Assembly (NCBI GenBank): GCA_030054115.1
Contig: JASGCL010000001.1
Location: 48,788-112,787, forward strand
DNA length: 64,000 nt
Direction: 5' to 3'
Source: Hydrotalea sp.
GTDB taxonomy: Bacteria; Pseudomonadota; Alphaproteobacteria; JASGCL01
The notes below the pieces were generated by a model. That model was not told where the DNA came from, did not search any database, and saw nothing but the letters and a program-made list of their open reading frames with translations. This document shows positions 24,638 through 64,000 of this stretch, piece by piece (positions within the stretch are counted from its first letter, which is position 1; the number at the start of each line of letters is the position of its first letter). Both the position numbers and the translations under genes were made by a program.

Positions 24638-24646
24638 GTTTTAAAA

Positions 24647-25204: not shown

Positions 25205-25619
25205 TAATGATAATGTGCTTCGTCATATTAAAGGCTCTTGGCTAGATGCTGAGAAAAATACTGTTACGTCTGAGGCGTTTATGCTAAGAGAGCACGAACA
25301 AGGTATATCTGTAAACTGGCTAGAGCATGATATAATCAAATATCCGAATACAAAATCTCAGATTAATTTTATCAGAGGTTCTATCAATCTAGAATTAAAA
25401 AAAAGCCATCGTTTTCTAAAATTGAATGTTGGTAAAACCAAAAATATAATAAAAGAAAAAATAAAAAAAACTATTATTATAGAACACCAACCGAATAAGC
25501 ATGATAATTCTCATTCTTGCATTGCTATAGAAAAAAATAAAATTATTAATAAGTTAATAGCGCTATGCATTGTAGAAGAATTTGGGAAAAAGGATAATCT
25601 TATCGATGCCGCATCCTAA
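25185..25619 (+). CDS. Hypothetical protein (orphan ORF 3 of the cassette)
   Basis: 144 aa, overlaps ORF2 by 20 nt, very Lys/Ile/Asn-rich. The N-terminal HIKGSWLD ... ISVNWLEH block has no confident family assignment. Confidence 0.5.
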   Translation: MKKNIPDNDNVLRHIKGSWLDAEKNTVTSEAFMLREHEQGISVNWLEHDIIKYPNTKSQINFIRGSINLELKKSHRFLKLNVGKTKNIIKEKIKKTIIIEHQPNKHDNSHSCIAIEKNKIINKLIALCIVEEFGKKDNLIDAAS

Positions 25620-25798
25620 TATTTTTTGCCCCCGATTTGGCATCGCCGAATAGAATTATAGTATTATTCTTTAAAGAATAATGAATGGTTTTAGACGCTG
25701 GCTAAAATAGCTCCCTACTTGCAAGACCCCGAACAAATATACTTGACCACACTGGCCTGTTTACTAACGCTGGTGCCGGCCATGCTGTTAGTAATAAA

Positions 25799-26803
25799 TT
25801 AAAATTCGATTTGCGAGACCACCGCCCGATGGTCAGACGGCCAGGGCGCAATGGCGATATCGGCATGTTGCTTGTCTTCGCCAATTACCATACTGCTGTT
25901 TACTTTTAAATTTTTTGCCTTGGCAAAAATAAAATCGATTCGGTCGTGGTGGTCTTCGGGGTCGGTTTGGGCCGTGGTCGGTGTCCAGGTTAAGCCGGGT
26001 TTTGCCACTTCATCTTGGTTGATGGCGCGATAGGTATCAACAAAACCCATTTTTTCCAATTTCTGCGTGGTGGGCCAAGCAACCTTGACCGGGTGTAATT
26101 TCGCCGCCACCGCCGCCTTTGTCCAATCGCGGTGCGATGGTTCGTTAAAATCACCCATGACAATCACCGCGTCCGATTTTTTTGTTTCATTTTTAATCTC
26201 CGCGCTTAATTCTTTAAAAGCGGCACCATGGGCAATCTCGGCATAATGAATGGCTTCCTTTTCCGTTTTGATAAAGGGGTAACCTTCATATTCGATATTG
26301 TTAATTTGATAGGGCGGGTATGGTTTATAATCAAGGTTCAGCGAAAAAACATAAATCTTTCGACCATTGTTGAGATTGATTTCCGCCCCCAACCCCAGCG
26401 GTGTGCCCTTTTCAATTGGGTATTTGCTTAAAATTGCATTTGCCCAAATGGCGGGGTGGTCGCCGGTGCGTTTTTTGTCAGCGTCATAAAAATTTGATTG
26501 GTCATAATAATAATAACCCATGGCCTTGGCCAATTTCGGCGTTATCGATGGGCCGGTCGGCCCCGGGTTTTTTTCATCGGGGTTGTCCAATCGAACCTCC
26601 GACAGGGCGATAATATCGGCCTTGCTTTCTTTCATAATTTTTATGGTTTGTTTAAATCCGGCCTCGTTGCCGCCAGCATTTAATATATTAAATTGCAACA
26701 GGGTCAATTTCGTCGTTTCGGCATGGGCGACCCGGCCACCGCCAAACACGCCCATAACTGCCATCGCGGCCACCAAGATTGAGGACAAATAAAATCTTTT
26801 CAT
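25799..26803 (-). CDS. Secreted endonuclease/exonuclease/phosphatase (EEP) family protein
   Basis: 334 aa with a signal peptide (AMAVMGVFGGGRVAHA). Contains EEP-fold blocks: LLQFNILNAGG, IIALSEV, and a C-terminal SDHRAV. Confidence 0.75.
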   Translation of the reverse strand: MKRFYLSSILVAAMAVMGVFGGGRVAHAETTKLTLLQFNILNAGGNEAGFKQTIKIMKESKADIIALSEVRLDNPDEKNPGPTGPSITPKLAKAMGYYYYDQSNFYDADKKRTGDHPAIWANAILSKYPIEKGTPLGLGAEINLNNGRKIYVFSLNLDYKPYPPYQINNIEYEGYPFIKTEKEAIHYAEIAHGAAFKELSAEIKNETKKSDAVIVMGDFNEPSHRDWTKAAVAAKLHPVKVAWPTTQKLEKMGFVDTYRAINQDEVAKPGLTWTPTTAQTDPEDHHDRIDFIFAKAKNLKVNSSMVIGEDKQHADIAIAPWPSDHRAVVSQIEF

Positions 26804-29863: not shown

Positions 29864-30123
29864 GTGACAACACTAGGCAATCTGGTAAAATTTTTCAATT
29901 GCTAATATGAAAAAAAATTTCTTAAGCGTAATCATTTTTTTTCATCATAAAAAAAGAGGAATAAAAACCAAATGCAAACCCACCATTGCAAATAAAATTA
30001 AACTTAATAATCAACGATATAAACATCGGCGGTGGGGTTGTAATATAATTGATTTGGTTTAGAATCCCCCAAGGTAATTAACCGGCAATAAAATATCACA
30101 AAAAAAACCCTAGGAGAACGCGC

Positions 30124-30249
30124 ATGAATTTTTTAAAAAAATTATTAGCAAGACGTATCTTTCGCAAAAAAAATTTCATGAACATCATCCGGTTATTTTT
30201 TACCATGACCGCGATATTGTCGGTCGCGCAGGGTTTGGCGGCGGCGTAA
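30124..30249 (+). CDS. Putative 41-aa small hydrophobic peptide
   Basis: MNFLKKLLARRIFRKKNFMNIIRLFFTMTAILSVAQGLAAA, with an AGGAGA Shine-Dalgarno 6 nt upstream. Basic N-terminus and hydrophobic C-terminus. Speculative. Confidence 0.2.
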   Translation: MNFLKKLLARRIFRKKNFMNIIRLFFTMTAILSVAQGLAAA

Positions 30250-30431
30250 AAACGCGCGATATACAACCAACCGCGTGGTATTCAAGACGCCTGTCGCCAC
30301 CCTGCCCTCGGCAATAATTGCAAGGTTGATGCTATCCAGCGGGGTGTTTTAGATTCATTTTTTAACTGCGAGCGGTTACAAAAAACACGCTTATAGCTTG
30401 TTTTCTTGGGAGAGATGTTTAATAGAAAGGC

Positions 30432-31070
30432 GTGTCTTTATTTGATAATTTAAATCCTGCTAGTTTTCTAAAATCCTTGTTAGATAACAAGGACGCTGTG
30501 TTTTTCATCATGGCTTTTATTCTGCCGGGTTTTATTTGCGTTAAGTTTTATGAAATTTTGACTGGCCAAAAACGAACTGACGCTAGCCAATTTAGAATGG
30601 ATTTTTTTGCTTACAGCTTAATAAATAATTTTTTTGCTTTGCTATTGGATATAACAATTAATCATTTTCTTGCGTCAAAAACAGATATTGTTAGCTACCT
30701 GCTCTATTTCTTATATTTTGTCATCTTGCCAATTTGTTTAACTTATATCCTTTATTTATCTAGGAAAGCTAACTGGTCTATATGGTTGTTTCAGCATCCT
30801 GATGCTTATGCCTGGGACCATGCCTTTAAGAATGCTAAAAATGGATGTTTTGTCATCGTAACTTTAAACGATGGTAAAAAATATGCTGGGAAATATATTA
30901 GCAAACCACAAGAGAAAAAAACATCCTTTGCCGCCTCTGGTTATTTAGCAAAAGACATATACCTTGCCGAACAATGGGAGTTAAATAAAAATGCCAGCTT
31001 TAAGAAAAAAACTAATCAAACTGGCGGAATATATTTATCAGACATTAAGACTATTGAATTTTTTGAGTAA
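30432..31070 (+). CDS. Hypothetical membrane protein (N-terminal multi-TM region, C-terminal soluble domain)
   Basis: 212 aa, AT-rich. Three to four hydrophobic helices in residues 20-110, then a soluble C-terminal part (CFVIVTLNDGKKYAGKYIS ... GGIYLSDIKTIEFFE). No family recognised. Confidence 0.55.
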   Translation: MSLFDNLNPASFLKSLLDNKDAVFFIMAFILPGFICVKFYEILTGQKRTDASQFRMDFFAYSLINNFFALLLDITINHFLASKTDIVSYLLYFLYFVILPICLTYILYLSRKANWSIWLFQHPDAYAWDHAFKNAKNGCFVIVTLNDGKKYAGKYISKPQEKKTSFAASGYLAKDIYLAEQWELNKNASFKKKTNQTGGIYLSDIKTIEFFE

Positions 31071-31111
31071 AAGTGATAAATTTTGTAATATAATTTAAAG
31101 GAGCGTTAACA

Positions 31112-31280
31112 ATGACTGGAAAATTAATATATACTAAAGATGGACATACACCGCCGAAGTCTACGGGTAACAACGACCAACCAAATAATATAAAAATGAT
31201 ACCCACTCGCGAGGGGTATTTGCCTTTTGGACATACGCCACAAGGGCGAGTCATTGAAGTAAAGCCCCCCAAAACACGTT
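31112..31280 (+). CDS. Putative 55-aa small protein
   Basis: MTGKLIYTKDGHTPPKSTGNNDQPNNIKMIPTREGYLPFGHTPQGRVIEVKPPKTR, with a strong AAAGGAG Shine-Dalgarno 8 nt upstream. Contains an internal repeat (DGHTPPK / FGHTPQG). Not in the ORF track because it is under 60 aa. Confidence 0.35.
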
Positions 31281-31320
31281 AGAATTTTCGGGTGGGTTCG
31301 CGGATAAGATTTTTTATAAA

Positions 31321-31358
31321 AAAAAGGGCGGTTATTACTAACCGCCCTTTTTTATTTT
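31321..31358. terminator. Strong bidirectional rho-independent terminator
   Basis: aaaaAGGGCGGTTAttacTAACCGCCCTttttttattttt: perfect 10-bp stem, 4-nt loop, with an A-run before and a T-run after. It terminates both the small plus-strand ORFs and convergent aroC. Confidence 0.8.
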
Positions 31359-31471
31359 TCTTGAAACTTCTGCGTATTATTAAACGCTCATAACGTAGCT
31401 ATATCGTCAGACGAACACTGCGTCAGCAGTTTTCGTAATTTAAATTGTCAAATCGCGGAGCGATTTTTTTA

Positions 31472-32563
31472 TCAAATAACTTCTCCACACTGCCCGCGAT
31501 GCAATAATAAATGGTCGAGGATGGTTATCGCCATCATCGCCATGGTTATCGGCACGGCGCGAATCGCAACGCATGGGTCGTGTCGCCCCTTCGTCACAAT
31601 GTCGGTGTTGTCGCCATTGGTGGTCACGGTTTTTTGCGGGATAAGGATACTGCTGGTCGGTTTTATCGCCACCCGCACCATAATATCTTGGCCGGTGCTG
31701 ATGCCGCCCAATATGCCGCCGGCGTGGTTCGATAAAAATTCAACCTCACCTTTTTTATTTGCTTGCATCTCATCATTGTTGTCGGTGCCCTCCATCCCCG
31801 CGACATTCATGCCGTCGCCAATCGCCACCGCCTTCACCGCGTTTATCGACATCATGGCGCTTGCCAAATCGGCCGATAATTTGCCGTAAATCGGCGCGCC
31901 AATGCCCGCCGGCACGCCGCGCGCCACCACCTGAACCATGCCGCCAACCGACGAACCTTTTTTCCTTATGCTGTCTAAATAATCGGCAAAGGTTGCGACG
32001 ATTTTTTTATCGGGGGTGTAAAAATCATTGTTCCACACGCCGCCCCAATCGTAATTTTTTTCGTCGCTGTGGTGCCTGCCCATTTGGATAAGCCCGGCAT
32101 CAATGCCATAATCTTTGCCCAATATATGTTGCAACACCTGGTGCGCCACCGCCCCCACCGCCACCCGCATCGCCGTTTCGCGCGCCGACGACCGACCGCC
32201 ACCGCGATAATCGCGCAGGCCGTATTTTTGTTGATACGTATAATCAGCATGGCCCGGGCGAAATTTTTGCGCAATCTCGCCATAATCTTTCGACCGTTGG
32301 TCTTGGTTTTCAATAACCATGACAATCGGCGTGCCGGTGGTAACGCCGTCAAATAGCCCGGAAACAATTTTTACCTTATCCTCCTCCTGCCGTTGCGTCG
32401 TGAAACGGCTTTGCCCGGGGCGACGGCGGTCAAGCCATTGTTGCACCATGGCTTCATCAATTTTTATACGCGGCGGGCACCCGTCAATCACCGCGCCAAT
32501 CATCACCCCGTGGCTTTCGCCAAAGGTGGTGAAACGAAACAAACGGCCAAAACTATTCGACAT
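31472..32563 (-). CDS. aroC: Chorismate synthase
   Basis: 363 aa. N-terminal FGESHG and overall conservation match chorismate synthase. Confidence 0.95.
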
Positions 32564-33797: not shown

Positions 33798-34508
33798 ATG
33801 AAAAAGCATTTTAAGCAAGCTTTATTTTTAGCTGGTGGTCTGTTTGTATTACTAGCGGGTGACAATGGCCTTTATATAACCCAAGCGCAGGCGCAAGCGA
33901 ACAATGCGGGTAACAGATTCTTCATCAGCGCCGCGCCACAATTTTCATACAGCAATTTTATTGGTATCGGCTGGGGTGGTGGTGTATCGCTGGGCACGAC
34001 CAACGACCGTCGTACCGACGCCTTTAATGTCGATTACCAAAACATGTCGCAAACCTTTGACGCTGGCGGCGACATCAGCAATTTATTAAAAAGCATTCCC
34101 GGGGTTAACCTCAACGTGGACGCCAACGCCAGCGCGACCATGAAAACCCAATTTGCCGCCATAACCTATGATTACGTTGCCAAATTGGAATATGACCAGT
34201 TTGTTGGCTTGATTGGCACCGGCGCAGGGATTGAGGGTTGGATTCTGCACGTAACCGCCGCCGCCGTGGCCAATGCCACGGCCACCGTGTCGGGCGGTGG
34301 GCAAACCCAAACCCAAACCCAATCACAATCAAGCGGCACCGATAAGGAAGTAATCCTTGGCGGGTTATTATTGACGCCGCGCATTGGTTTTGAATGGAAC
34401 GCCACCGATTTATTAGCCCTTGGCATGAACATACGTGGCTTTATCGATTTGCCGGCATTTCCCCTGTCGCGCGGCACGATCGACGTAACGGCAAAATTAA
34501 CATTCTAA
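33798..34508 (+). CDS. Secreted/outer-membrane beta-barrel-like protein, paralog A
   Basis: 236 aa with signal peptide. Gly-rich alternating pattern and a C-terminal Phe, as in OMP beta-barrels. Paralogous to the next gene (IGIGWGGGVSLGTTNDRRTDAFNVDY vs LGIGVGGGISIGLDSGDKTDAGNIDF, and LLTPRIGFEW vs LLTPRVGVEW). Confidence 0.5.
   Translation: MKKHFKQALFLAGGLFVLLAGDNGLYITQAQAQANNAGNRFFISAAPQFSYSNFIGIGWGGGVSLGTTNDRRTDAFNVDYQNMSQTFDAGGDISNLLKSIPGVNLNVDANASATMKTQFAAITYDYVAKLEYDQFVGLIGTGAGIEGWILHVTAAAVANATATVSGGGQTQTQTQSQSSGTDKEVILGGLLLTPRIGFEWNATDLLALGMNIRGFIDLPAFPLSRGTIDVTAKLTF
34302..34331. repeat. In-frame hexanucleotide microsatellite (CAAACC)x3 followed by (CAATCA)x2 inside paralog A
   Basis: caaacccaaacccaaacccaatcacaatca encodes QTQTQTQSQS in a predicted surface loop. 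Confidence 0.6.
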
Positions 34509-34518
34509 AAAAAACATC

Positions 34519-35310
34519 ATGGGCATTAAAACAAAAAAATCTTCCTTCACAACCATTGCGGCCATAGGCCTGTTTGGCATGCTGGCCGGCCTGGCGACCC
34601 GCACCGCGCCGGCAATGGCGGCAGACGACAACGACACAGCAATAACATTGCCAACGGGCAAAAATATCGACTTCAGATGGGTGGACATTAGTGATGATTA
34701 TACTGATGATTATAACAGCGCCAGCCAAAAGCAACCCATCGCCGTTAACAACGCCCGTGCAAATGTGCCATTTACCGTTATCGAACCAACTGTGACCTTT
34801 GGCATGTTGGGCATTGGCGTCGGCGGGGGTATTTCTATCGGCCTGGATTCCGGTGACAAAACCGATGCCGGCAATATCGATTTTCACTATTTGTCGGTCA
34901 CCAACGAAAAGCTTAACCAATTTATTACCGCCGTTAAAGACGCCTATGGCCTGACGTCGTTGGGTCACGTGCCCGCCGCCGCCTCCTTTACCATGTTAAA
35001 CATACCGGTGACATATGATTGGACGGCAAAATTTGGTGGCAACCTCAAACTATTGGTGGGCTCTGGCGTTGGGCTTGACCTTTTCATTTTTTACCCCAAG
35101 GTTGATACCGGCGTTGGCGCGGCCAACGATGCCATATCGAAACTAAACATACCGATTATACCAGAATTTTTATTGACACCACGGGTTGGCGTTGAATGGA
35201 CTATCGACGATGGGTTAGCGATTGGTCTGGACGCACGTGCCTTTGTTGACTTGCCGGCCTATCAACTTTCGCGCATCGCAGTTGATGGTTTGGTGAAGTT
35301 TATATTCTAA
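34519..35310 (+). CDS. Secreted/outer-membrane beta-barrel-like protein, paralog B
   Basis: 263 aa with signal peptide and C-terminal ...VKFIF. Tandem duplicate of the upstream gene, 10-nt spacing. Confidence 0.5.
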   Translation: MGIKTKKSSFTTIAAIGLFGMLAGLATRTAPAMAADDNDTAITLPTGKNIDFRWVDISDDYTDDYNSASQKQPIAVNNARANVPFTVIEPTVTFGMLGIGVGGGISIGLDSGDKTDAGNIDFHYLSVTNEKLNQFITAVKDAYGLTSLGHVPAAASFTMLNIPVTYDWTAKFGGNLKLLVGSGVGLDLFIFYPKVDTGVGAANDAISKLNIPIIPEFLLTPRVGVEWTIDDGLAIGLDARAFVDLPAYQLSRIAVDGLVKFIF

Positions 35311-35360: not shown

Positions 35361-37976
35361 TTAACGCAATGAAATATGGCCGAAGCTTGGCTTGCCAGGT
35401 GCTGGTGATGGTTGCGCTGTTTGTTGCGTCGTTGCTTGTGCCGGGCGCGCGCCGGCTTGCGGTGGCTGTTGCGGCGCCATTGCTTGGGGCGCGCCACCGC
35501 CCATCATCTGTGCCAGCTGTCCCATCATCTGTGCCGGCATTCCACCCGGCATACCGCCAGCGGGCATCATCATGCCGGCGGGCATTCCACCCGGTGTGCC
35601 CGCGCCGCCCTGTTGTTGTTTGGTTTGTTGTTGCAAATACATCGGCAATATTTTTTCGGTTTCAGCCATTGCCACCATCTTGCCATCCTGCATCACCATC
35701 ATCATGTCGGCCACCGACAATAATTTGGTGTTGTGGGTGATGAAAATCACGGTGCGGCCGGCTTGCTTCAGGGCGGTAATGGCGTTCAGCAGGGCGACTT
35801 CGCCCGCGGTATCAAGGTTCGAATTGGGTTCATCCATCACGATAACCGCCGGGTCGGTATAAAGCGCGCGCGCCAGGGCGATTTTCTGCCTTTGCCCGGC
35901 GGATAATTTTACACCATCGATACCGATATCGGTTTCATAATTTTTATCCAACCGCATGATAATCTCGTGGCAATTGGCTAGCTCGGCCATTGCCACCACC
36001 CGTTCCATGTCGGGGGTTTGAAAACGGGCGATGTTTTCGGCGACCGACCCTTCAAACAATTCGACCGTTTGTGGAACATAACCAATAAAATTCGGCCGGT
36101 CGTTGGGGTTTAAATTATTAATATCGGCACCATCGATACGAACAAAACCGCGCATCGGTCGCCACACGCCACACAAAAATTGGGCAAAGGTGGTTTTTCC
36201 CGCGCCCGATGGCCCGACCACCGCCGTCACCGTGCCGGGCATAAATTGCGCGCTGATGCCTTGGATAATGGGGCGGGTTGCGCCGGGGGGCGAACCAACC
36301 AATTCCTCGACCGCGACGATTCCTTTCGGCCGGGGCAGGCGCAATTCGTTGTCGATGTTCGGCGGGAATTGGCTGAGCATTGTGCTGAGGCGCAGGTAAG
36401 CAAACCGCGCGGTTGAAAATGACCGCCAGCCGCCAATCGCCATATCCACCGGTTGCAAAACCTTGCCAACAATAATCGAACAGGCGACAATCAACCCGGG
36501 GCTTAATTGGTCGGTCAAGACAAGGTAGCTCGCCAAACCCAAAACCAACGATTGCAACAATTGCCGCAACGACCGCGACAGGGTGGACAGGGTCGCCACC
36601 GTGTCCTGCGCCTTGGTCATTAAATTAACCGTCGGTTCATAATTTTCGCGCCATTTTTTTTGCATCGACCGCATCATGCCCATTGCCTGCAACACGTCGG
36701 TGTTGCGCAATGATGTTTCGATAAATTGCGATGCCTGGTTTGAATAGGTTGCCGAATTGCGGAAGGGGGTTTTGGAGGCAACCTCGGTCATGACCGCCAA
36801 GATAAAAACCAACACCATGCCGACCAGGGCAAAAATACCCATGACAGTATTGATATAAAACAATATGCCCAAAAACATAAATGCCCATGGCGTGTCGTAA
36901 ATCACAAATATCAGGGGCGAGGTGATGAACATTCGCACCTGTTCCATATCGCGCACCGCGCCCGACCCGACCGGCCGGTTGCGCATTAGGTTATTAAGGA
37001 ACGCCGATTCAAAAACACTATCCTGCATCGCAAAGTTGATATAGGCACCGATGCGCCCCATGATTTTTAGGCGAATCGCCTCGAGCATCGATTGAAACCC
37101 CATCAAAAAAATGGCGATGGCGGTCATCGACACCAGCGTGCTGGTGTTGGCCGACCCGAGGACGCGGTTATAAATTTGCATCATAAAAATCGGCGGCACC
37201 AGCATCAAGACATTAATAAACACCGAAAAAAACCCGATGGTTATCAAGGTCGAGCGATAATAGCTGATAAGTTGCCTTATCGGGTCGCGTTTCCATTGCA
37301 CCGATTGGCGAATATGTTTTGCCGACAGCACAAAATTGCCGTCGCTGGTGATTTCGGGTCGCGGTCTTTTATTGAGGAAAATATCCTTCAAAAAATTCCA
37401 CAGCGATTCCACATCGGCCCCCGCGCCATCCCCTGCTGACGCCTTACCATTTGGCCGTTGCCCGCGCGGCCGCGCGGTGTTTTGCCTCGGCGGTTGTTGC
37501 GCGCTTGCTTGGTAATTTTGTTGTGGATTTTGTTGATAAGATGTTTGACCACCGCCATCGGTTGCGGGTGGCGGTTCGGTGGTTGTGCCTGGCGTAATAC
37601 CTTGATTGGCGACCTGCGCCATTTGCGTCATGGCCTGGGCAACGGCTTGCTCCATGGTTCGTTCGGGCAATGGTTGCGGTGCGAATGATTGCGGTTGAGA
37701 TTGCATCGGTGGTGTTTGCGGCCGCGCACCATTACCATTGCTTACTGGTCGCCTTATCGGGCGTCTCATCGGTTGTCTTATGGTGGGGCGGGGTGGCCTG
37801 GGAGATTGCGCCGGCATGGTTGCCATGGCCGGCCGTTCGGCGGTTGATTGCATTGGCGGCTGACCTTGTGGACGGGCTTGCGGGCGACCGCGGTATTGAC
37901 CTTGCGGGCGCGGCCTCATCCCCGGTCGCGATGGTCGCGGGCGAAATTGGTTTGGTCGTGGGGGTTGCTGGGCCAT
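35361..37976 (-). CDS. Type I secretion system permease/ATPase (PrtD/HlyB-like, no C39 peptidase domain) with long low-complexity N- and C-terminal extensions
   Basis: 871 aa. The central 560 aa are a typical T1SS ABC exporter (6-TM domain, Walker A GPSGAGKT, signature LSAGQRQ, Walker B VIVMDEP). About 200 aa of P/Q/R/G-rich sequence precede the first TM. About 100 aa of Q/G/M/P-rich sequence follow the nucleotide-binding domain. Confidence 0.8.
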   Translation of the reverse strand: MAQQPPRPNQFRPRPSRPGMRPRPQGQYRGRPQARPQGQPPMQSTAERPAMATMPAQSPRPPRPTIRQPMRRPIRRPVSNGNGARPQTPPMQSQPQSFAPQPLPERTMEQAVAQAMTQMAQVANQGITPGTTTEPPPATDGGGQTSYQQNPQQNYQASAQQPPRQNTARPRGQRPNGKASAGDGAGADVESLWNFLKDIFLNKRPRPEITSDGNFVLSAKHIRQSVQWKRDPIRQLISYYRSTLITIGFFSVFINVLMLVPPIFMMQIYNRVLGSANTSTLVSMTAIAIFLMGFQSMLEAIRLKIMGRIGAYINFAMQDSVFESAFLNNLMRNRPVGSGAVRDMEQVRMFITSPLIFVIYDTPWAFMFLGILFYINTVMGIFALVGMVLVFILAVMTEVASKTPFRNSATYSNQASQFIETSLRNTDVLQAMGMMRSMQKKWRENYEPTVNLMTKAQDTVATLSTLSRSLRQLLQSLVLGLASYLVLTDQLSPGLIVACSIIVGKVLQPVDMAIGGWRSFSTARFAYLRLSTMLSQFPPNIDNELRLPRPKGIVAVEELVGSPPGATRPIIQGISAQFMPGTVTAVVGPSGAGKTTFAQFLCGVWRPMRGFVRIDGADINNLNPNDRPNFIGYVPQTVELFEGSVAENIARFQTPDMERVVAMAELANCHEIIMRLDKNYETDIGIDGVKLSAGQRQKIALARALYTDPAVIVMDEPNSNLDTAGEVALLNAITALKQAGRTVIFITHNTKLLSVADMMMVMQDGKMVAMAETEKILPMYLQQQTKQQQGGAGTPGGMPAGMMMPAGGMPGGMPAQMMGQLAQMMGGGAPQAMAPQQPPQAGARPAQATTQQTAQPSPAPGKPSFGHISLR

Positions 37977-38112
37977 GGTAAAAATGCAAGGTGGGACAAG
38001 AGCAGGGTATTTACCTGTCTTTTATGCAAATTAAGACTTTTTTATGATAATTGCAACTGCCAAGAAAGGCAGGGGGTATTTTATATTTTTTACTAGCAAT
38101 TCTTCCCTACTC

Positions 38113-38141: not shown

Positions 38142-38163
38142 ATCATCATAGATAGCATAAAAG

Positions 38164-39912
38164 ATGACTCAAGCTACATCCACTGACAGAATTAGAAAAA
38201 ATCTTTTTATCCCTACTAATATTTCTATTGGAGATATGTTGGGTAATGGCAAAAAATATATTGTGCCAAAATACCAACGGAATTACTCATGGGAGCAAGA
38301 ACAATGGCAAGAGTTATGGGATGATATAAAAAAATGCTATGAAGATGAAAATTATTATCACTTCTTAGGAAATATTGTTTTATCAGAACAAATCGGTAGA
38401 AAAGAGTTTGAAATTATTGATGGCCAACAACGACTGGCTAGCATAAGCATCGTTGCCATTGTCTTAATAGATTTCTTACAGCAACTTGTTAATGAGAGCA
38501 TCAGCAAGGACGAGAATCAAAAACGCGTTTCTTATTATAAAGAAAGATTAATTTCAAGCACCGATGGCACGACCCTTTACTCCTATCCAAAGTTACAACT
38601 TAATAAAAACAACAATGACTACTATAAAGATTACTTAAGCCAAATAAATATTGTTAGACCTTCCGATAATAATTCTAAGCCGCTTTATGACTCCATAATT
38701 TTTTTTAAAAAGCGGCTAAATGAAGACTATCCTAATGTCATTAAGGATGGCGAACAGATATCAAAAATACTAGAGTCAATAATCGACAAGTTATTTTTAA
38801 TACAAATCACCGTTGCTAATGAGAATGACGCCTACATTCTTTTTGAATGTTTAAATGCACGTGGCTTAGACCTTTCCCCCGCTGATTTAATTAAAAATTA
38901 TATTTTCTCTCAAATAAGAACCCCTCACGATGCTGACATCATTTCATCAAAATGGCAAGAGCTTGAAGGTATTACTAAAGCGAATAAACTTGCTTCTTTT
39001 ATAAGGTATTTTCATAATTGTACTGAAGCCGGGGTTATTAAAGAAAAGCAATTATTTTTAGAATTACAAAACATTATTAAAGAAACTTATCACGGCAATA
39101 TAGATAAATTTATTAACCAGCTTATAGAATATGCAAAGATTTATAGAGCCTTAAAAAATTATACTGATGATGAATGGCATAAGGAGGGGGGGCAAGATAT
39201 TAAAAACGCAGTTAGGGTATTAACTGATTTAGGGGTGCAACAACCTCTAATTGTTCTGATGCCTGCATATCAAAAATTCAAAACAAGGGATTTTATTCAA
39301 ACCATAAAATATCTTTCAATTGTAGCAATAAGATACAATATTGTCTGCCATAAAAATCCTAACGCGCAAGAAAGCCTGTATAATAAAATTGCCATAGACA
39401 TCCATGCTGGCAAAATAAAAGGATCTTCGGATATAAAGGACAGAGTCATAAAAGGGGGAATATATCCAAATGATAATGAATTTAAGGCAAGCTTTCAGAC
39501 CTTGTCTATAACGAAAACTAAGGTCATTATATATTTTTTAAAAGAATTAGAAAATTATATTTCTGGCAACAATCGGGGCACGGCTGATACTGCAGGCACT
39601 ATAGAGCATATATTGCCTGAAAGCTGGAACGAAAATTGGGCTGATTTCTTTGATACAAAGCAACATGAGGAGTATTATAAAAAGTTTGGTAACTATTGTC
39701 TCTTAGAGGCAGAGATTAATAGTTCAAACGAAATGGCTGATATAAAAACATTTTCAGAAAAAAAAGCAGGCTATAAGAAATCAAATTATGCTCTAGCGAA
39801 GCAGTTATTAAAATATGACGAATGGAATGAAGATTCTATTAATACTCGTCAAGAAAATTTAGCCGAGCAAGCAATAAAAATTTGGTCGTTTGATAATATT
39901 GATAATCTATAA
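38164..39912 (+). CDS. DUF262 + DUF1524 fusion protein (GmrSD / BrxU-like modification-dependent nuclease; putative type IV restriction/defence)
   Basis: 582 aa, AT-rich. The N-terminus has the DUF262 (ParB/Srx-like NTPase) signature IDGQQRL. The C-terminus has a DUF1524 His-Me finger-like block IEHILPESW ... GNYCLLEAEINSS. Confidence 0.75.
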   Translation: MTQATSTDRIRKNLFIPTNISIGDMLGNGKKYIVPKYQRNYSWEQEQWQELWDDIKKCYEDENYYHFLGNIVLSEQIGRKEFEIIDGQQRLASISIVAIVLIDFLQQLVNESISKDENQKRVSYYKERLISSTDGTTLYSYPKLQLNKNNNDYYKDYLSQINIVRPSDNNSKPLYDSIIFFKKRLNEDYPNVIKDGEQISKILESIIDKLFLIQITVANENDAYILFECLNARGLDLSPADLIKNYIFSQIRTPHDADIISSKWQELEGITKANKLASFIRYFHNCTEAGVIKEKQLFLELQNIIKETYHGNIDKFINQLIEYAKIYRALKNYTDDEWHKEGGQDIKNAVRVLTDLGVQQPLIVLMPAYQKFKTRDFIQTIKYLSIVAIRYNIVCHKNPNAQESLYNKIAIDIHAGKIKGSSDIKDRVIKGGIYPNDNEFKASFQTLSITKTKVIIYFLKELENYISGNNRGTADTAGTIEHILPESWNENWADFFDTKQHEEYYKKFGNYCLLEAEINSSNEMADIKTFSEKKAGYKKSNYALAKQLLKYDEWNEDSINTRQENLAEQAIKIWSFDNIDNL

Positions 39913-45034: not shown

Positions 45035-46405
45035 TTAGATATTCAAAAGCAAGTGCTCTCTCTCCCACGAGCTGATAACGCGGTGAAATTTATTATATTC
45101 GTGCAATTTGACCGCGCTGAAAAGCGCGATGAAATCCTCGCCGATGATGGATTTCATTTGTTTCGAGTGGCTCATTTTATAAATAGCATCCTGCAAATTA
45201 TGCGGCAGGCTGAAGGCCAATTTGTAGGCATCGCCCTCGGTCGGGCGGCCGGGCGAAACCCGCTCGCGCAGGCCCAAGAGGCCGGCGGCAAGGCTGGCGG
45301 CGAAGGCAAGATAGGGGTTGCAATCGGCACCGATGATGCGGTTTTCGACGCGGCGATTTTTCACCTCAGACGCCGGCACGCGAAGCCCGACCGTGCGGTT
45401 ATCCAGCCCCCAGTGGGTGTTAATCGGTGCGTCGCTGTATGGTGTGATGCGCCGATAACTATTGATATTGGGCGCGAACATTGGGAAGCAATGGGAAATA
45501 TATTTACGTAGCCCGCCGATGTAATAAAACAACTTGCGGCTATTGCGGCCGTCGAGCTCGGCGAATAGATTTTGACCGGTGACCTTATCCACCACCGATT
45601 GGTGAAGATGCATCGCCGAACCAGTGTGGTTTTCATAGGGCCGCGCCATGAAGGTAACGAACATACCTTTTTCTAACCCGACCTGGCGCGCCATGCGCTT
45701 GAACATAAAAACTTGGTCGGCCAGCGACAATGGGTCGCCGTGGTTAAAATTAAATTCGACCTGCGCCGGCCCAGATTCCAAGGCGATGGTATCGACGTCG
45801 ATATCCATTTTTTCGGAGTAATTATAAAGTTGGTCGACCACATGGTCAAAATTATTCAATCGTTCGATGCCGTAACCTTGCCCCGATTGGTCTTGGCGAC
45901 CAGTTAAGGATTCGGGGGTGAGCAATGGCAAATCGGGGTCGAGGTTTTTTTGCACCAAATAAAATTCCAATTCGGGCGCGACCACCGGTTTTAACCCCAT
46001 GTCGTCATATAATTTTAACACATGTTTTAAAACCGAGCGCGGCGCGAAGGGTAATTCTTGGCCGGCCTTGTCATTATGTTTGCCGTCGCTGGGGTAGACC
46101 ACGTCGCACACCACCTGCGCCGTTGGGTTTTTATACCACGGCACCAGGCTGAGGGACGAAAAATCCGGCACCATCTGCAGGTCGCCGTCGGTATCTTGGA
46201 TGACTTCGTCATCCCAGATATATTCGCCATTGACGGTTTCTTTCAAAACCTCCATCGGCATGCGAATGCCGCGTTCGTAATCTTCCAAAAATTTTTTAGC
46301 GGGAATTATCTTCCCGCGCATGATGCCATTTAAATCTGGCATCGAGCATTCAACTTCGTCAATTTTACGTTCTTCCAGCCATGCCGCCACTTCCGCCTTT
46401 TTCAT
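45035..46405 (-). CDS. Glutamine synthetase family protein (gamma-glutamyl-amine synthetase, PuuA/GlnA3-like)
   Basis: 456 aa with a GS beta-grasp N-domain and catalytic domain (MPDLNGIMRGKIIP ..., ELEFYL, SAMHLHQS). Confidence 0.85.
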   Translation of the reverse strand: MKKAEVAAWLEERKIDEVECSMPDLNGIMRGKIIPAKKFLEDYERGIRMPMEVLKETVNGEYIWDDEVIQDTDGDLQMVPDFSSLSLVPWYKNPTAQVVCDVVYPSDGKHNDKAGQELPFAPRSVLKHVLKLYDDMGLKPVVAPELEFYLVQKNLDPDLPLLTPESLTGRQDQSGQGYGIERLNNFDHVVDQLYNYSEKMDIDVDTIALESGPAQVEFNFNHGDPLSLADQVFMFKRMARQVGLEKGMFVTFMARPYENHTGSAMHLHQSVVDKVTGQNLFAELDGRNSRKLFYYIGGLRKYISHCFPMFAPNINSYRRITPYSDAPINTHWGLDNRTVGLRVPASEVKNRRVENRIIGADCNPYLAFAASLAAGLLGLRERVSPGRPTEGDAYKLAFSLPHNLQDAIYKMSHSKQMKSIIGEDFIALFSAVKLHEYNKFHRVISSWEREHLLLNI

Positions 46406-46549
46406 GTTACACCTAATTTCTATTGGTCGCCCCCATCAATAATAACGGGTAGAAAGCAACCAACGCGACTATAGCAGAGCAAAAGGATAATGGCAAATGC
46501 CACCTATTAGTTTTAAAATCGATTCTGCAAAAAAATTATAAGAGACTAT

Positions 46550-46909
46550 TTATTTATTTTTTCTATAACGATTGGATCGAATAATTAACAATGGCACCCC
46601 TATTAATAACAATAAAAATACCACGTCTCTTTCAAACCAAGACCATGCAATCACCACGGCATAAAAAATAACCACGCTAGTGACATTTATTCCTATATCT
46701 CTTGCTCTAGCACTCCAGACCATTGCCATAGATACAATAGCTACTACATATAATATTAAGTAACTATTATAACTGATTTCTTCATTTTGATTAAGCAATG
46801 CAAGGAAGAAAAATAACACAACATAAGATACAAAATATCCTACCCTAGCCATTCTCAACGAAGTGAAAAATGAAACGATAAATTGCAAAAATGATTTTTG
46901 TTTTTTCAT
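46550..46909 (-). CDS. Small inner-membrane protein, DUF805-like
   Basis: 119 aa, AT-rich. Three to four TM segments, with SARARDIG resembling the DUF805 R.HDxGxSGW core. Weak assignment. Confidence 0.35.
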   Translation of the reverse strand: MKKQKSFLQFIVSFFTSLRMARVGYFVSYVVLFFFLALLNQNEEISYNSYLILYVVAIVSMAMVWSARARDIGINVTSVVIFYAVVIAWSWFERDVVFLLLLIGVPLLIIRSNRYRKNK

Positions 46910-46946
46910 TTATAATTTCTTAAAAAATAATATATTTTTATTCCTT

Positions 46947-47657
46947 TTAAAAACTATAGCTTGCCCCCAGTCCGAAGCTATAATAAAATATATCAGAATC
47001 ATTATCGCTGGTTGTTTTATTACTTGTCGTCGTTCCTGAGGTAAAACCAGAAACTCTATCTACGTCATAAGGAGCAGACCTTATCAACCCAGCAAAATCA
47101 TTGGCCAATGTCAACTGAAACGACGGCGTTACGGAATAATTAAGGTCAAACGTGCCACCGACTATCGGATGAGTGCTACTTTCTTTTATATAATACTCAG
47201 CAAAGTTACTCCTCCTCCCCGTTATAACCTCCGTATAAAAAGCCACTCCCGCGTACACCCCGCTCGACAGAGATAATTTATCTGTTAGTCTTATCTTGAG
47301 GGCGTTTGTGCCTATAACCAAAGGAACGTAAGACACATAACTTGTGCTGTTATATAGGCCAATATTTTCTAAACTATTTTTCCCAAGATATGTTAACGCA
47401 TCGCCACTATAGTTAAAACCCGTGCCAATATAGATATAATCTTTATAGCCGACAGAAGCTTTGAATCCCCCCATTATCACATCGCATTTTGACAAAAGGC
47501 CAGAACAACCACCCTCAGCAACAACAACGCCAACGCCAACTTGAGGAGTAATGGATAGTTTTAATCCTATTTCAGCTTTAGCATTTTTGGGTACAAACCC
47601 AACCATGCCAAACACAGCCAAAACCATAGCGAAAGTTAGTAATACTCTTTTTATCAT
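46947..47657 (-). CDS. Outer-membrane beta-barrel protein
   Basis: 236 aa with signal peptide. Alternating hydrophobic pattern and a C-terminal ...GLGASYSF with terminal Phe. AT-rich. Confidence 0.55.
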   Translation of the reverse strand: MIKRVLLTFAMVLAVFGMVGFVPKNAKAEIGLKLSITPQVGVGVVVAEGGCSGLLSKCDVIMGGFKASVGYKDYIYIGTGFNYSGDALTYLGKNSLENIGLYNSTSYVSYVPLVIGTNALKIRLTDKLSLSSGVYAGVAFYTEVITGRRSNFAEYYIKESSTHPIVGGTFDLNYSVTPSFQLTLANDFAGLIRSAPYDVDRVSGFTSGTTTSNKTTSDNDSDIFYYSFGLGASYSF

Positions 47658-47724
47658 TATCTTTAAACTAGTATACTAATAATAATTATAGTCAAGAGAG
47701 AAAATGAAGCGAGTGTTGGTCTTT

Positions 47725-61248: not shown

Positions 61249-61466
61249 AGATTCTCTCATAAAATAATGGTGGGCTTCAGGGGTCTACCCCACTGGCCTA
61301 AAATGGCATTGTCATGATGATGGCATGGTGATGGCGGCGCGCCAATATGCCACCCCCGCGCCAAAATGGCGTAAAAATTGCATTAAATTGGCAATCGAAG
61401 CCACTATTATTTACCTTGGTTGTTATTTTTTATAAAAAAATTACCGGTAGAAATGGCGGCGCAATA

Positions 61467-62816
61467 ATGAGAGAAGATGGAGGAATGTCCCCCGTGCAAG
61501 CACCAATGTTTGACCCCAATATGGTTCGCCCCAAGCCGGCGGGGCGCGACCGCGATATTGTTTTGGGTTCGGTTACCATTGTCGTTGGCCTGTTGATATT
61601 TTTTATTTGGGCGTTTTTTTCACCATTGCACGAGGGCGTGATGGCGCAGGGCACTATCGTGGTTGAGGGGCAACGAAAAGTTATCCAACATTTGGAGGGC
61701 GGCATCGTTAAAAATATATTGGTCAAGGAAGGCGACACGGTAAAAACCAACGATGTGTTGGTGGAGATGGAAGGCACGCAAAGCCGCGCCAATTTTGATA
61801 TTGTAACCGGCCGTTATGAATCTGCCCTGGCGCAGGTCACGCGCTTGACCGCAACCTACAGCAATCAACCGACATTGGTTTTCCCCAATGAATTGTTGCA
61901 GTCCGCCAAAACCAACAAGCAATTACAAAGCACCTTGACCGCGCAACAGGAAATTTTTAAGGCCTATCGCGAACAATATGCTAACCAAGTAAAAATTTAC
62001 CAAGAACGATTAGCCGGCTTAATCAGCCAACAACGCGCCAAGCAATCTTATTTGGGCGGCATCAAAAAAGAACTCATCAATTTACAATCGCTGGAGCGGG
62101 ATCGCTTGGTCGACCATGCCACGGTGATTGCACGGCAACGCGATTACGAAGAAACCAACAGCGACATCAATCGCTTGGGGTCAGACATAGCCTCTACCCA
62201 ATTGTCCTTGTCGCAAATCAAAATTGATTCGTTGGAGAAAATCTCTCGCGAATTGGCCGAGGCACAAAAAGAAATGAACGACCTAAAAGCGCAAAGGGAT
62301 AATTTGGCGGATGTTGTTAGCCGAATTGAGATTCGCTCGCCGGTCGACGGAAAAATTCTTCGCCTCGCCATCACTGGTGCTGGCCAGGTTGTCCCCCCGG
62401 GTGGCGCGCTGATGGAAATTGTGCCGATTGATGACAAATTGGTTATCCACGCCATGGTGAATGCGACCGACCGACCCGGGTTGGTCGAAGGGCAAAAGGT
62501 GCGGGTTAGTTTTCCATCGTTAAAATCGCGCGTCTTGCCAACAATTTATGGCACGCTCAATCTGATTTCGGCCGACGTAATTCAAAACCCCAACGCCGCC
62601 CCAACCACCAGCATCCAAGCCAACAAGGTCAACCCCAGTAGTTTTTACAGCGCGACCATCAGCGTCACCCCCGAGGAATTAAAAAAATTGGACGATAACA
62701 AACTTGACCCAGGCATGCCGGTCACCGTGATGATTGAGGGTAAAAAAAGAACACCGATGGCCTATTTTCTGAAGCCATTTAGCGGCCTGTGGGATGAAGC
62801 ATTCATCGAAAAATAA
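61467..62816 (+). CDS. HlyD-family type I secretion periplasmic adaptor subunit
   Basis: Single N-terminal TM (IVLGSVTIVVGLLIFFIW), long coiled-coil middle, and a C-terminal beta domain. Start taken at the internal MREDGG. The ORF track extends to 61347. Confidence 0.85.
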   Translation: MREDGGMSPVQAPMFDPNMVRPKPAGRDRDIVLGSVTIVVGLLIFFIWAFFSPLHEGVMAQGTIVVEGQRKVIQHLEGGIVKNILVKEGDTVKTNDVLVEMEGTQSRANFDIVTGRYESALAQVTRLTATYSNQPTLVFPNELLQSAKTNKQLQSTLTAQQEIFKAYREQYANQVKIYQERLAGLISQQRAKQSYLGGIKKELINLQSLERDRLVDHATVIARQRDYEETNSDINRLGSDIASTQLSLSQIKIDSLEKISRELAEAQKEMNDLKAQRDNLADVVSRIEIRSPVDGKILRLAITGAGQVVPPGGALMEIVPIDDKLVIHAMVNATDRPGLVEGQKVRVSFPSLKSRVLPTIYGTLNLISADVIQNPNAAPTTSIQANKVNPSSFYSATISVTPEELKKLDDNKLDPGMPVTVMIEGKKRTPMAYFLKPFSGLWDEAFIEK

Positions 62817-62832
62817 AATCAAAAATAAAATC

Positions 62833-64000
62833 ATGAGACAACCTTCACACCGCCCATTCGGCTATTCGCAAAAAGCCATCTGGCATTTTTTTATCTTAAC
62901 GGCGATTGCCCTGGCACCGCAGGATTTGCGGGCGCAGGATTCATCGGGCCAAGCCCAGACAGCCACTCCAGCCACAACGGCAACCTATGATTTTGTCACG
63001 GCCTTGAGGGATGCCCTGGCCAACGACCCACGGCTGGCTGCCGCCAACGAAGCATTAACCGCGCAAGCCGCCAGCGCGCAGATAACAAAAATGTCGGCCC
63101 TGCCGCAACTTACCACCAGCGGTTATATCGGCAACTATACCCAAAAAAAATTCCAACAGATTCCGAATTATTATACTCTGAGTGGCCCATTTGGCAACCA
63201 ACGGATTCAAGTTGGCTCGACCGCCGGCACGGTAACCATTAGCGGCACCCTGAGCGAGGCCAACCTGACCGCCAGTCAAAATTTATTAACCTTTGGCCGG
63301 CAACAGGCCAACGAAGGAATCAGCGACAGCCAATATCGCCTGGCGCAATGGCAACAGAAAAAAATCGCCTATCAAATCACCACCGACGTCGCCAACAATT
63401 ATATTGGTTGCGCCACCGCCGGGGAAATCGCCAAAACCAAACAATTTTACCGCTCCAGTTTGCAATCGATATACAACAATGTGAAAAGAAAATATGACGT
63501 CAATGCCGCAACCAACACCGACCTTAACCTGGCGGCCATCAATTACCGCAACGCCGCAAATGATTTGTTATTGCAACAGCAACAGGTTGCAACATCCTGC
63601 CAAAAATTATTACGCCTCACGGCGCAGGACATGGATTACAAGCAATTGTTACCCCGCCTGTCGCTGGCCGACCTTGACCAATATGATAAATTAATTCCAA
63701 ATAATTTTGACGATATCAAAAATACCACCCTGGCCAATAACCCCGACCTGGGGACGGCGGTTGAAAGCCTGACCCTGCGGCAAAAGCAAAAGGAGCAGGC
63801 GGTCGCCAATTTAATGCCGATAGCCAGTTGGAGTGCCAAGGTCGAACAGCTGACCGTGCCCGGCTCGGTCAGCCGCAACGGCGTCACCCCCAGCGCGACC
63901 ATCAACAACCAATCGGCGACCATCACCCTCAATTACCAACAAAACATCATGCAAAGTATTTTTCAATTGTCGGCCAGCAATCATAAGGCCACGGCGCAAT
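62833..64000 (+). CDS. TolC-family outer-membrane efflux protein (3' partial, runs off window)
   Basis: Open frame from the ATG at 62833 to the window end with no stop (my translation). The N-terminus DFVTALRDALANDPRLAAANEAL matches the TolC N-terminal helix pattern. Follows HlyD by 16 nt. Confidence 0.7.
   Translation, partial: MRQPSHRPFGYSQKAIWHFFILTAIALAPQDLRAQDSSGQAQTATPATTATYDFVTALRDALANDPRLAAANEALTAQAASAQITKMSALPQLTTSGYIGNYTQKKFQQIPNYYTLSGPFGNQRIQVGSTAGTVTISGTLSEANLTASQNLLTFGRQQANEGISDSQYRLAQWQQKKIAYQITTDVANNYIGCATAGEIAKTKQFYRSSLQSIYNNVKRKYDVNAATNTDLNLAAINYRNAANDLLLQQQQVATSCQKLLRLTAQDMDYKQLLPRLSLADLDQYDKLIPNNFDDIKNTTLANNPDLGTAVESLTLRQKQKEQAVANLMPIASWSAKVEQLTVPGSVSRNGVTPSATINNQSATITLNYQQNIMQSIFQLSASNHKATAQ

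Follow-up and report, generated by a model that had tools for sequence, protein, structure and literature searches.

ATP-binding cassette (ABC) transporters of type I secretion systems (T1SS) are sorted by the appendix at their N-terminus, which may be a C39 peptidase, a C39-like domain (CLD) or none (PMC8277102). The CLD of HlyB binds unfolded substrate and places the cargo at the entry window (PMC8277102). In Aquifex aeolicus PrtD (AaPrtD), the entry window is highly basic, as is a 'bowl' next to it, and the two are believed to stabilise acidic cargo; the motifs specific to T1SS ABC proteins are F128-x-T130 at the kink of the third transmembrane helix (TM3), W295-R296 in TM6 and the gate residue R307 at the substrate-entry window (PMC8277102). 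Natural T1SS substrates tend to be anionic, and stretches with a charge of more than +2 per 20 residues block secretion through pumps of the PrtD/LipB type (PMC9223453). Little is understood about the way in which unfolded cargo is recognised and held by the PrtD/HasD class, which has no appendix. Here we consider an exporter gene of the PrtD class that encodes a long low-complexity tail at each end, located on the minus strand at 35361-37976 of a 64,000-nucleotide stretch of DNA (hereafter the window; positions 48,788 to 112,787 of contig JASGCL010000001.1, assembly GCA_030054115.1).

On sequence grounds, the product belongs to the PrtD subfamily proper and carries a lineage-specific pair of predicted disordered appendages, which is unusual for this pump family. 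The clade that carries them is a small group of uncultured alphaproteobacteria of roughly 50% GC. With moderate confidence, we read the protein as a functional PrtD-class exporter that has gained two translated, cytoplasmic, disordered appendages, which would act in cargo capture or docking.

A PrtD-class core between two extensions

The open reading frame (ORF) that a sequence-only reading of the window had placed at this position stands: it comprises 871 codons and a stop, opens with ATG, contains the peptide strings that had been quoted from it and forms a complete gene. The PrtD-type identity proposed in the same reading is upheld by TIGR01842, the NCBIfam model of the PrtD subfamily (score 621.9 bits, cutoff 510.15, with aa 238-777 matching model positions 2-541 of 544), and by the AaPrtD structure 5L22 (E 1e-133; aa 232-783 on chain residues 10-561 of 572). 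These alignments displace the core from residues 200-760, where it had first been drawn. Pfam finds ABC_membrane followed by ABC_tran, which is the half-transporter layout of one six-helix type IV exporter domain and one nucleotide-binding domain (NBD). The ATPase motifs are intact, with Walker A GPSGAGKTT, Q636 in the Q-loop, the signature LSAGQ, Walker B VIVMDE and H748 in the H-loop, and are invariant in the orthologues described below. The T1SS motifs F350-I-T352, W517-R518 and R529 align to F128/T130, W295/R296 and R307 of AaPrtD, and are also invariant in the four orthologues. Membership of the HlyB/LssB groups is not indicated, with 262.6 bits against the TIGR01846 cutoff of 725.55 and 339.9 bits against the TIGR03375 cutoff of 693.1; the matches to these models begin at about model position 133-135, i.e. 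past the CLD. Within aa 1-240 there is no C39 or C39-like domain (no PF03412, and no other Pfam match even at E <= 1). The gene product is accordingly predicted to be a functional PrtD-class type I secretion ABC half-transporter.

The likeness to the PrtD/HasD/LipB class, with AaPrtD as its reference, runs from end to end of the core. It includes a score that exceeds the cutoff of TIGR01842, intact ATPase motifs, the FxT, W-R and gating-arginine motifs and the lack of a C39 domain. Genes for an HlyD-type membrane-fusion protein (MFP) and a TolC-like outer-membrane protein (OMP) are found in the same genome region. The differences lie in gene order and at the two termini. The ABC gene is 23 kb from the MFP and OMP genes, unlike in a prtDEF-like operon, and in AaPrtD the aligned core is preceded by 9 residues and followed by 11, whereas the window protein has about 213-231 and about 88 extra residues that are predicted to be disordered. 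Across an alignment of 30 homologues, the stretch ahead of TM1 is typically 15-30 residues long and the one that follows the NBD 10-35. Short termini of about 10-30 residues on each side, which are not part of the hidden Markov model definition of the subfamily, are not found here, where about 231 residues precede and about 88 follow the 5L22-aligned region.

The N-extension consists of about 185 low-complexity residues (the N-arm) and about 45 conserved residues that are not of low complexity. The tails announced by the sequence-only reading are thus present, with its estimates of about 200 residues for the N-terminal and about 100 for the C-terminal one replaced by the alignment-based sizes above. 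The N-arm is rich in proline (19%), glutamine (16%) and arginine (12%), and over aa 1-190 has an isoelectric point (pI) of 12, with 24 lysines and arginines against 8 aspartates and glutamates. The C-tail is made up largely of glutamine (18%), glycine (18%), alanine (15%), proline (15%) and methionine (12%), contains three GGMP units and has no acidic residue. Both tails are encoded by DNA of 60-64% GC against 52% in the core, and among the real genes of the window this one alone has extensive low complexity.

Conservation of the tails in four genomes

A protein search across 5.8 billion proteins returned two close matches, the NCBI record of the window protein itself (MDI9313135.1, P0001) and P0002, which is 78% identical to the window protein in that search and is encoded at locus L001. 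Two further loci, L004 and L005, were obtained from a scan of GTDB species genomes, while a scan of metagenome contigs for further orthologues gave nothing above 34% identity. The three orthologues come from other assemblies, are 72-76% identical to the window protein and keep the whole frame. L001 lies on an alphaproteobacterial contig from a metagenome-assembled genome (MAG) and is syntenic with the window (sdhCDAB, then the ABC gene); here the frame is open past the annotated start to an ATG, giving 794 aa that begin MAYPPQRRPS…. L004 lies on a complete alphaproteobacterial chromosome of 1.63 Mb (848 aa, MDTPPHNNRPP…) and L005 on another contig (842 aa, MDIPPHNNRPP…), so that full-length ORFs of 871, 848, 842 and 794 aa are seen in four assemblies.

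In each of the four, an in-frame stop is followed 2-15 codons later by the first ATG, which opens the common pattern M-[A/D]-x-x-PP. In the window and L001, GC content steps at this ATG from 0.27-0.40 to 0.63-0.68, and in the window the rise to 0.68 falls exactly at the ATG. The N-arm is rich in proline, arginine and glutamine (or asparagine) throughout, with a pI of 12 and a net charge of +15 to +19, and positions M1, P5, R7, P18, P24, P69, M70 and R72 are invariant. The segment before TM1 is near-invariant in the four genomes (SLWxFxKxxFxxKxPxPE…DGxFVLSA…WKRDPIRQLI). The C-tail begins YLQQQ in each, is rich in glycine, methionine, glutamine, alanine and proline with at most one acidic residue, and ends in HISLR. 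The codons of this pentapeptide vary synonymously (Leu TTG/TTA, Arg CGT/AGG) and the downstream neighbour genes differ; no other ORF ending in HISLR was found in the sequences examined.

Tail length differs among the orthologues, from 148 to 190 aa in the N-arm and from 57 to 92 aa in the C-tail. The orthologue tails contain in-frame tandem repeats with periods of 9, 12, 21, 24, 39 and 45 nt, and in-frame slippage of such short repeats may account for the changes in length. The DNA of the window's own tails had been described as repetitive, but Tandem Repeats Finder detects no tandem array in them and they are merely biased in composition.

Translation and selection

L004 and L005 form a pair close enough for tests of selection. 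All five of their indels fall in the tails and all are multiples of three (3, 6, 12, 12 and 3 nt), three of them in the N-arm at codons 23, 60 and 85. Substitutions at the first, second and third codon positions number 8, 11 and 27 in the N-arm, 3, 5 and 13 in the C-tail, and 6, 2 and 45 in the core, a third-position excess with binomial p = 3.6e-4 for the N-arm and 6.8e-3 for the C-tail. The ratio of nonsynonymous to synonymous substitution rates (dN/dS, Nei-Gojobori) is 0.15 in the N-arm (aa 1-165), 0.14 in the C-tail, 0.05 in the core and 0 in the conserved segment, where residues 191-231 are near-invariant with dN = 0. DNA identity is 91% in the N-arm and about 48% in the 300 nt upstream of it, and the tail codons avoid CCT, GCT and ACT as the genome does. 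Both tails are thus maintained in frame and in composition, and are under purifying selection.

These comparative data carry the case. Taken by itself, the open frame has little weight, since frame 0 also remains open in shuffles that preserve dinucleotides, with P = 0.06 for the window and 0.04 for L001. A check of GC periodicity at the third codon position (GC3), which the sequence-only reading had proposed, was run and was not decisive, since the amino-acid composition of the tails itself dictates the observed order GC1 > GC2 > GC3. The same reading had left a choice between an internal start and real tails. No close orthologue starts near TM1 without an upstream ORF; all three keep the frame, the start and the composition, which together with the in-frame indels and the low dN/dS of both tails favours real tails.

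An internal start would make part or all of the N-extension an untranslated leader that is open through its composition, with translation beginning at M70, Met91, M119, GTG189 or GTG216. NCBI begins the window protein at Met91 (the record of 781 aa equals aa 91-871) and the orthologue at an internal Met, but the two starts are at non-homologous, unconserved positions. GTG216 matches the start position of the tail-less relative P0085 (see below), yet residues 191-231, which span it, are near-invariant, and no start codon exists between Met119 and GTG189. Translation must then begin at or before aa 189, well upstream of the canonical PrtD start, and the conserved Met moves this limit to aa 119 or earlier. 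An open frame is no more than mildly improbable in a stretch so rich in GC, frames on the antisense strand are likewise open and the third-position skew is weak in the first 58 codons; against this stand the three N-arm indels in multiples of three and the dN/dS over aa 1-165, the ATG at the extreme 5' end of the open frame in four orthologues with its common M-[A/D]-x-x-PP, the GC step in the window and L001, and an AGGA 4-5 nt before ATG1 in L004 and L005. Nor does this explanation apply to the C-tail: in four assemblies it occupies the stretch from the NBD to the first stop, and is so free of start ambiguity. We regard an internal start as very unlikely. The comparison of the four sequences instead places the start of translation at the first ATG (37976); the latest position that it allows is a conserved Met at or before aa 119. 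The NCBI start at Met91 is probably too far downstream, as is that of the orthologue record MGI9461166.1; in practical terms, both public annotations probably start too late and the ORFs that overlap the tails are artefacts.

Predicted structure of the tails

An AlphaFold2 model was built from the 30-sequence alignment. The predicted local distance difference test score (pLDDT) is 80-96 in the core and below 50 at aa 1-109, 119-187, 796-814 and 824-871, and both tails are therefore predicted to be disordered. Short helices are modelled at aa 108-124, at aa 186-200 (the amphipathic SLWNFLKDIF), at aa 219-225 and at aa 817-824. The first of these (TMEQAVAQAMTQM) is kept in three of the four orthologues and takes the form TM[E/Q]QAVxxAMxQM in the window, L004 and L005. 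When searched on their own, the tails give no Pfam match, even with the threshold relaxed to E <= 1. The juxtamembrane segment is strongly conserved in the four orthologues; canonical PrtD proteins lack it up to about aa 213, with P0085 and AaPrtD beginning at the equivalents of about aa 214-223. The N-terminus of type IV ABC exporters is cytoplasmic, and because the N-arm has no TM or other hydrophobic segment, both tails should lie in the cytoplasm, as the NBD does. The parts of the protein and the other features of the window are listed in Table 1.

Table 1. Parts of the exporter protein and associated features of the window. Residue numbers count from the first ATG.
Feature	Residues (aa)	Window positions	Strand	Remarks
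Polycationic P/R/Q-rich arm	1-106	37659..37976	-	Start M-[A/D]-x-x-PP conserved; pLDDT <50
Helical island TMEQAVAQAMTQMAQVAN	107-124	37605..37658	-	Modelled helix 108-124, low confidence; mean pLDDT ~53 over aa 111-120
Q/N/T/P/G-rich spacer, predicted disordered	125-185	37422..37604	-	pLDDT <50; length very different among orthologues
Juxtamembrane segment	186-231	37284..37421	-	Predicted amphipathic helix SLWNFLKDIF, K-x-P-x-P-E, hairpin, short helix
Canonical PrtD core	232-783	35628..37283	-	Elbow helix; 6-TM domain (ABC_membrane) aa 244-504; NBD (ABC_tran) aa 572-718
C-tail	784-866	35379..35627	-	Q-rich helix end YLQQQTKQQQ, then Met/Gly/Pro/Gln/Ala-rich, predicted disordered
C-terminal pentapeptide HISLR-COOH	867-871	35364..35378	-	Identical in four orthologues
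Met91 codon	91	37706..37708	-	NCBI start of MDI9313135.1; Met91 unconserved in orthologues
Sigma-70-like promoter match		38145..38172	-	TTGAGT-16-TATGAT, 9/12; ~170 nt 5' of ATG1; weak, based only on the consensus
T1SS membrane-fusion protein, HlyD/AprE type		61347..62816	+	TIGR01843 308.1 bits against cutoff 208.65
TolC-like outer-membrane factor		62794..64000	+	Pfam OEP 1.4e-16; cut by window end

Several points weigh against reading the tails as translated and specifically functional. The feature is carried by four genomes, two of them close relatives, and for that reason the selection statistics rest on one pair. ATG1 of the window is not preceded by a Shine-Dalgarno sequence, which is uninformative because sdhA, secA, gatB and most genes of the window also lack one. 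In the first 58 or so codons the L004/L005 substitutions (3/6/7) show little third-position skew, and part of the protein pool may be initiated at the conserved Met70 or Met119. Selection on bulk properties, such as charge and flexibility, instead of specific binding would equally fit a dN/dS of 0.15. The helical island is unrecognisable in L001. Lastly, a search for T1SS substrates found no ORF with two or more GGxGxD (RTX) motifs within the 64-kb window, so that an acidic substrate is a presumption for this organism. Taking these points into account, we are confident from the comparative data that the tails are translated and under selection, and consider it probable that they have a specific function.

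Rarity in the family and gain in one lineage

An exhaustive HMMER search was made over 1.84 billion cluster representatives, and the best 150 representatives were surveyed for tails. A single cluster with more than 50% identity represents the clade among the 1.84 billion. The next match, P0085, is 47% identical over a protein of 571 aa that starts at the equivalent of window aa ~214 and lacks both tails; its gene lies in a canonical ABC-AprE-OEP operon with 98 nt upstream of the ABC start. This tail-less, operonic arrangement with its short upstream region indicates that the four-genome clade gained the tails, and that its operon was dispersed as well. In this tail-less sister lineage, the stretch 5' of the ABC-AprE-OEP operon (L083:1723-3903) encodes a pair of basic paralogues, each about 340 aa long, which have signal-like N-termini and sequences of Sel1/TPR-like character (TPR, tetratricopeptide repeat); GroEL is encoded upstream of them. 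The paralogues are without a homologue in the window. As part of the substrate search, tblastn of the genes 5' of the tail-less ABC gene (GroEL and the pair of secreted paralogues) found nothing in the window or in L001, L004 and L005.

The sequence-only reading held that canonical T1SS ABC proteins lack such tails. This is so for most relatives, which are short-ended, but C-extensions of at least 100 aa occur in 12 of the 150 best representatives and are of low complexity in about 8. Low-complexity C-tails are thus recurrent in the family, at about 5% of near relatives. Further examples outside these 150 are P0003/P0004 (from the search of 5.8 billion proteins), PrtD-family proteins with a 220-aa G/Q/A-rich C-tail ending AVTPLKR, of which P0003 adjoins an AprE-type MFP gene; in P0003/P0004 as in P0099, P0136, P0144 and P0202, a PrtD core is followed by a long low-complexity C-tail whose composition and ending are not homologous to those of the window protein. 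N-extensions of at least 75 residues occur in 15 of the 150, and 12 of these contain 1-5 extra TM-like segments, which makes them another type of appendage. Up to three (P0197, P0215 and P0218) may carry N-extensions that are TM-free and A/P/R-rich. P0197 and P0215 were considered as independent parallels for the N-arm and set aside, as both come from genomes of 64-67% GC, in which annotated starts are doubtful, and have internal candidate starts; the P0215 extension also lacks the GC3 signal of its core. Both tails together are seen in none of the 150, and by sequence comparison the combination of a cationic N-arm with a GGMP/HISLR C-tail appears specific to this clade. In the literature, we found no description of disordered tails on T1SS ABC proteins, nor of recurrent low-complexity C-tails in the PrtD family.

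If the tails had no specific function, they could be translated yet inert, having grown by slippage into a spacer or entropic bristle of which bulk properties alone, such as solubility and the lack of stops, are kept. The variable tail lengths and the in-frame tandem repeats of the orthologues would fit such an origin, as would tail values of dS and dN that both exceed those of the core, the sporadic occurrence of unrelated low-complexity C-tails across the family and a nearest relative that works without tails in a canonical operon. On the other hand, dN/dS is near 0.15 and not near 1, and charge and composition are constant across orthologues of 72-76% identity (an N-arm of pI 12, a C-tail almost free of acidic residues). 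HISLR is invariant through synonymous changes, and conservation is also seen in the start motif and in the segment of aa 186-231. An inert spacer is therefore judged unlikely, while being the least unlikely of the alternatives weighed here.

Other appendages were noted in the survey. Long N-extensions (180-410 aa) with 3-5 extra TM-like segments fall into two apparent groups (P0101, P0102, P0123, P0141 and P0190; P0129, P0138, P0177, P0195 and P0219), the first of which has a basic low-complexity linker before the ABC core. Pfam gave no significant match for the two examples scanned, P0101 and P0129, and these groups may represent an undescribed membrane appendage of T1SS ABC transporters. Folded C-terminal additions comprise what by eye resembles a second NBD-like part in P0089, a TPR-like helical part in P0134 and a transposase-like part in P0178, the last possibly a fusion artefact.

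Possible functions of the tails

The N-arm occupies the place of the appendix in HlyB-type (C39-like) and PCAT-type (C39 peptidase) transporters, that is, a cytoplasmic position before the elbow helix and TM1, but it is a polycationic low-complexity chain and not a folded papain-like domain, so that any likeness in function would be one of analogy. Since natural cargo tends to be acidic and cationic stretches block secretion, an arm of about 185 aa and net charge of about +16 near TM1 would be suited to attracting acidic unfolded cargo, and would not itself be threaded through the pump. We propose that it could act as a flexible capture arm for acidic unfolded substrates beside the basic entry window. 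The amphipathic helix at aa 186-200 and the K-x-P-x-P-E segment, both within aa 186-231, might anchor the base of the arm at the membrane surface.

For the C-tail, two known layouts offer comparisons. FtsZ combines a globular core with a C-terminal linker (CTL) that is variable and disordered, plus an invariant C-terminal peptide (CTC) (bioRxiv 10.1101/171280); it is an unrelated protein in an unrelated process, and the analogy is one of architecture. The same arrangement is seen here in a C-tail of 57-92 aa with pLDDT below 50 and poor alignability, which is followed by the invariant HISLR; in both proteins the short end peptide would be the place of docking. In Hsp70, GGMP repeats before the terminal EEVD help to bind substrate and co-chaperone (PMC7926355). 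The Gly/Met/Pro repeats of the window protein (three GGMP) and of L004 and L005 (GGMP/GGAM) likewise stand right before a conserved C-terminal peptide, as in Hsp70/Hsc70, but this peptide is HISLR instead of EEVD, L001 has no exact GGMP and homology is not implied. GGM repeats are also present at the C-terminus of GroEL. From these layouts and the three GGMP units comes the proposal that the acid-free, Met/Gly/Gln-rich tail may be a flexible linker that offers HISLR-COOH to a cytoplasmic partner or to the transporter itself, while its Met-rich stretch could make holdase-like contacts with unfolded substrate.

Cargo capture or docking in this form is drawn from analogy and is a tentative assignment, on balance rather doubtful. 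More speculative still, and decidedly unlikely, is the idea that the folded HlyB-type appendix has been replaced by disordered, chaperone-like arms, with the N-arm fly-casting for acidic cargo and the C-tail holding cargo or recruiting a factor through HISLR, which would add a fourth class of T1SS ABC appendage, one based on intrinsically disordered regions.

The tails might otherwise serve localisation. The strongly positive N-arm could bind anionic lipid, polyphosphate or nucleic acid, and the Q/N/G/M-rich C-tail, prion-like in composition, could self-associate, so that exporters gather in patches or condensates, for example to meet MFP and TolC partners encoded elsewhere. The ABC gene is unlinked from the MFP and OMP genes in this clade, while the tail-less relative has its gene in an operon. 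There is also a precedent in the Mycobacterium tuberculosis ABC transporter Rv1747, in which disordered regions drive clustering (PMC8573418). However, Rv1747 relies on FHA domains and a phosphorylated linker, which are absent here according to Pfam, and the invariant HISLR end suggests specific docking over bulk demixing. Clustering is thus about as improbable as an internal start, and capture or docking is retained as the preferred, if tentative, proposal. A conserved polycationic disordered arm in the very place of the appendix, together with a Met/Gly-rich tail of invariant end, would be nature's own experiment on how disorder and electrostatics can capture cargo. With four genomes from uncultured organisms, the case does not yet bear on a major open question, but it is one that T1SS specialists can test.

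Candidate partners of the exporter

The MFP gene at 61347-62816 and the TolC-like gene that overlaps its end are likely the partners of the ABC protein, a pairing that we infer across 23 kb, and the type I system looks complete but dispersed. The TolC-like product scores 52 bits against the TIGR01844 cutoff of 225, the protein being shortened by the window end. The listed start of the MFP ORF may be over-extended, as it lies about 40-46 codons before the more plausible Met41/Met47 (MREDGGMSPVQ…) and the TIGR01843 match runs from aa 71.

Directly 5' of these two genes, a TPR-repeat protein is encoded at 60157-61248 (+), whose N-terminus resembles a signal peptide (…LLLAMLAITHQAQA/NQ). Within the secretion system it could serve as an accessory in the periplasm or as a factor related to the substrate. 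TPR domains are binders of C-terminal peptides, and the protein was considered as a partner of the C-terminal pentapeptide. It was set aside because its N-terminus makes it probably periplasmic and so an unlikely partner for a cytoplasmic tail.

The locus and its surroundings

Several plus-strand ORFs overlap the exporter gene (35369-35740, 35392-35862, 35412-35723 and 37670-37981). Four of the six frames of the C-tail DNA are free of stops, so these ORFs are artefacts of composition, as the sequence-only reading had claimed. No promoter-like match was found on the gene's strand between ATG1 and TM1, and Rfam and tRNA scans of the window were both without matches.

Between sdhB and the ABC gene, the window holds a gene for a GmrSD-type (DUF262/DUF1524) type IV restriction endonuclease at 38164-39912 (+), with 33% GC. 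In L001 and L004 the ABC gene directly follows sdhB, while L005 has another insertion at this spot, a minus-strand ORF of 215 aa (L005:1951-2598). The intergenic stretch between sdhB and the ABC gene seems to be a hot spot for insertions. Stretches of low GC at 24001-26000 (0.34), 30001-32000 (0.41) and 46001-48000 (0.40), against about 0.50 overall, may be further islands; a DUF6338 gene is located at 30432-31070.

Convergent to the ABC gene lie two tandem paralogues at 33798-34508 (+) and 34519-35310 (+), of 236 and 263 aa, with signal-peptide-like N-termini. Their common C-terminal part (…LLTPR[I/V]G[F/V]EW…DLPA[F/Y]…F), which ends in Phe, has the look of an outer-membrane beta-barrel; neither protein gave a Pfam or NCBIfam match.

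The source MAG is labelled 'Hydrotalea sp.' (Bacteroidota) at NCBI, and MDI9313135.1 bears the same label. The order of sdhCDAB, gatB and the class I LysRS gene is common to the window and the alphaproteobacterial contig L001, and the close ABC orthologues all come from MAGs labelled Alphaproteobacteria, one of them a complete chromosome of 1.63 Mb. Given this gene order and these labels, the window contig is probably misbinned or mislabelled.

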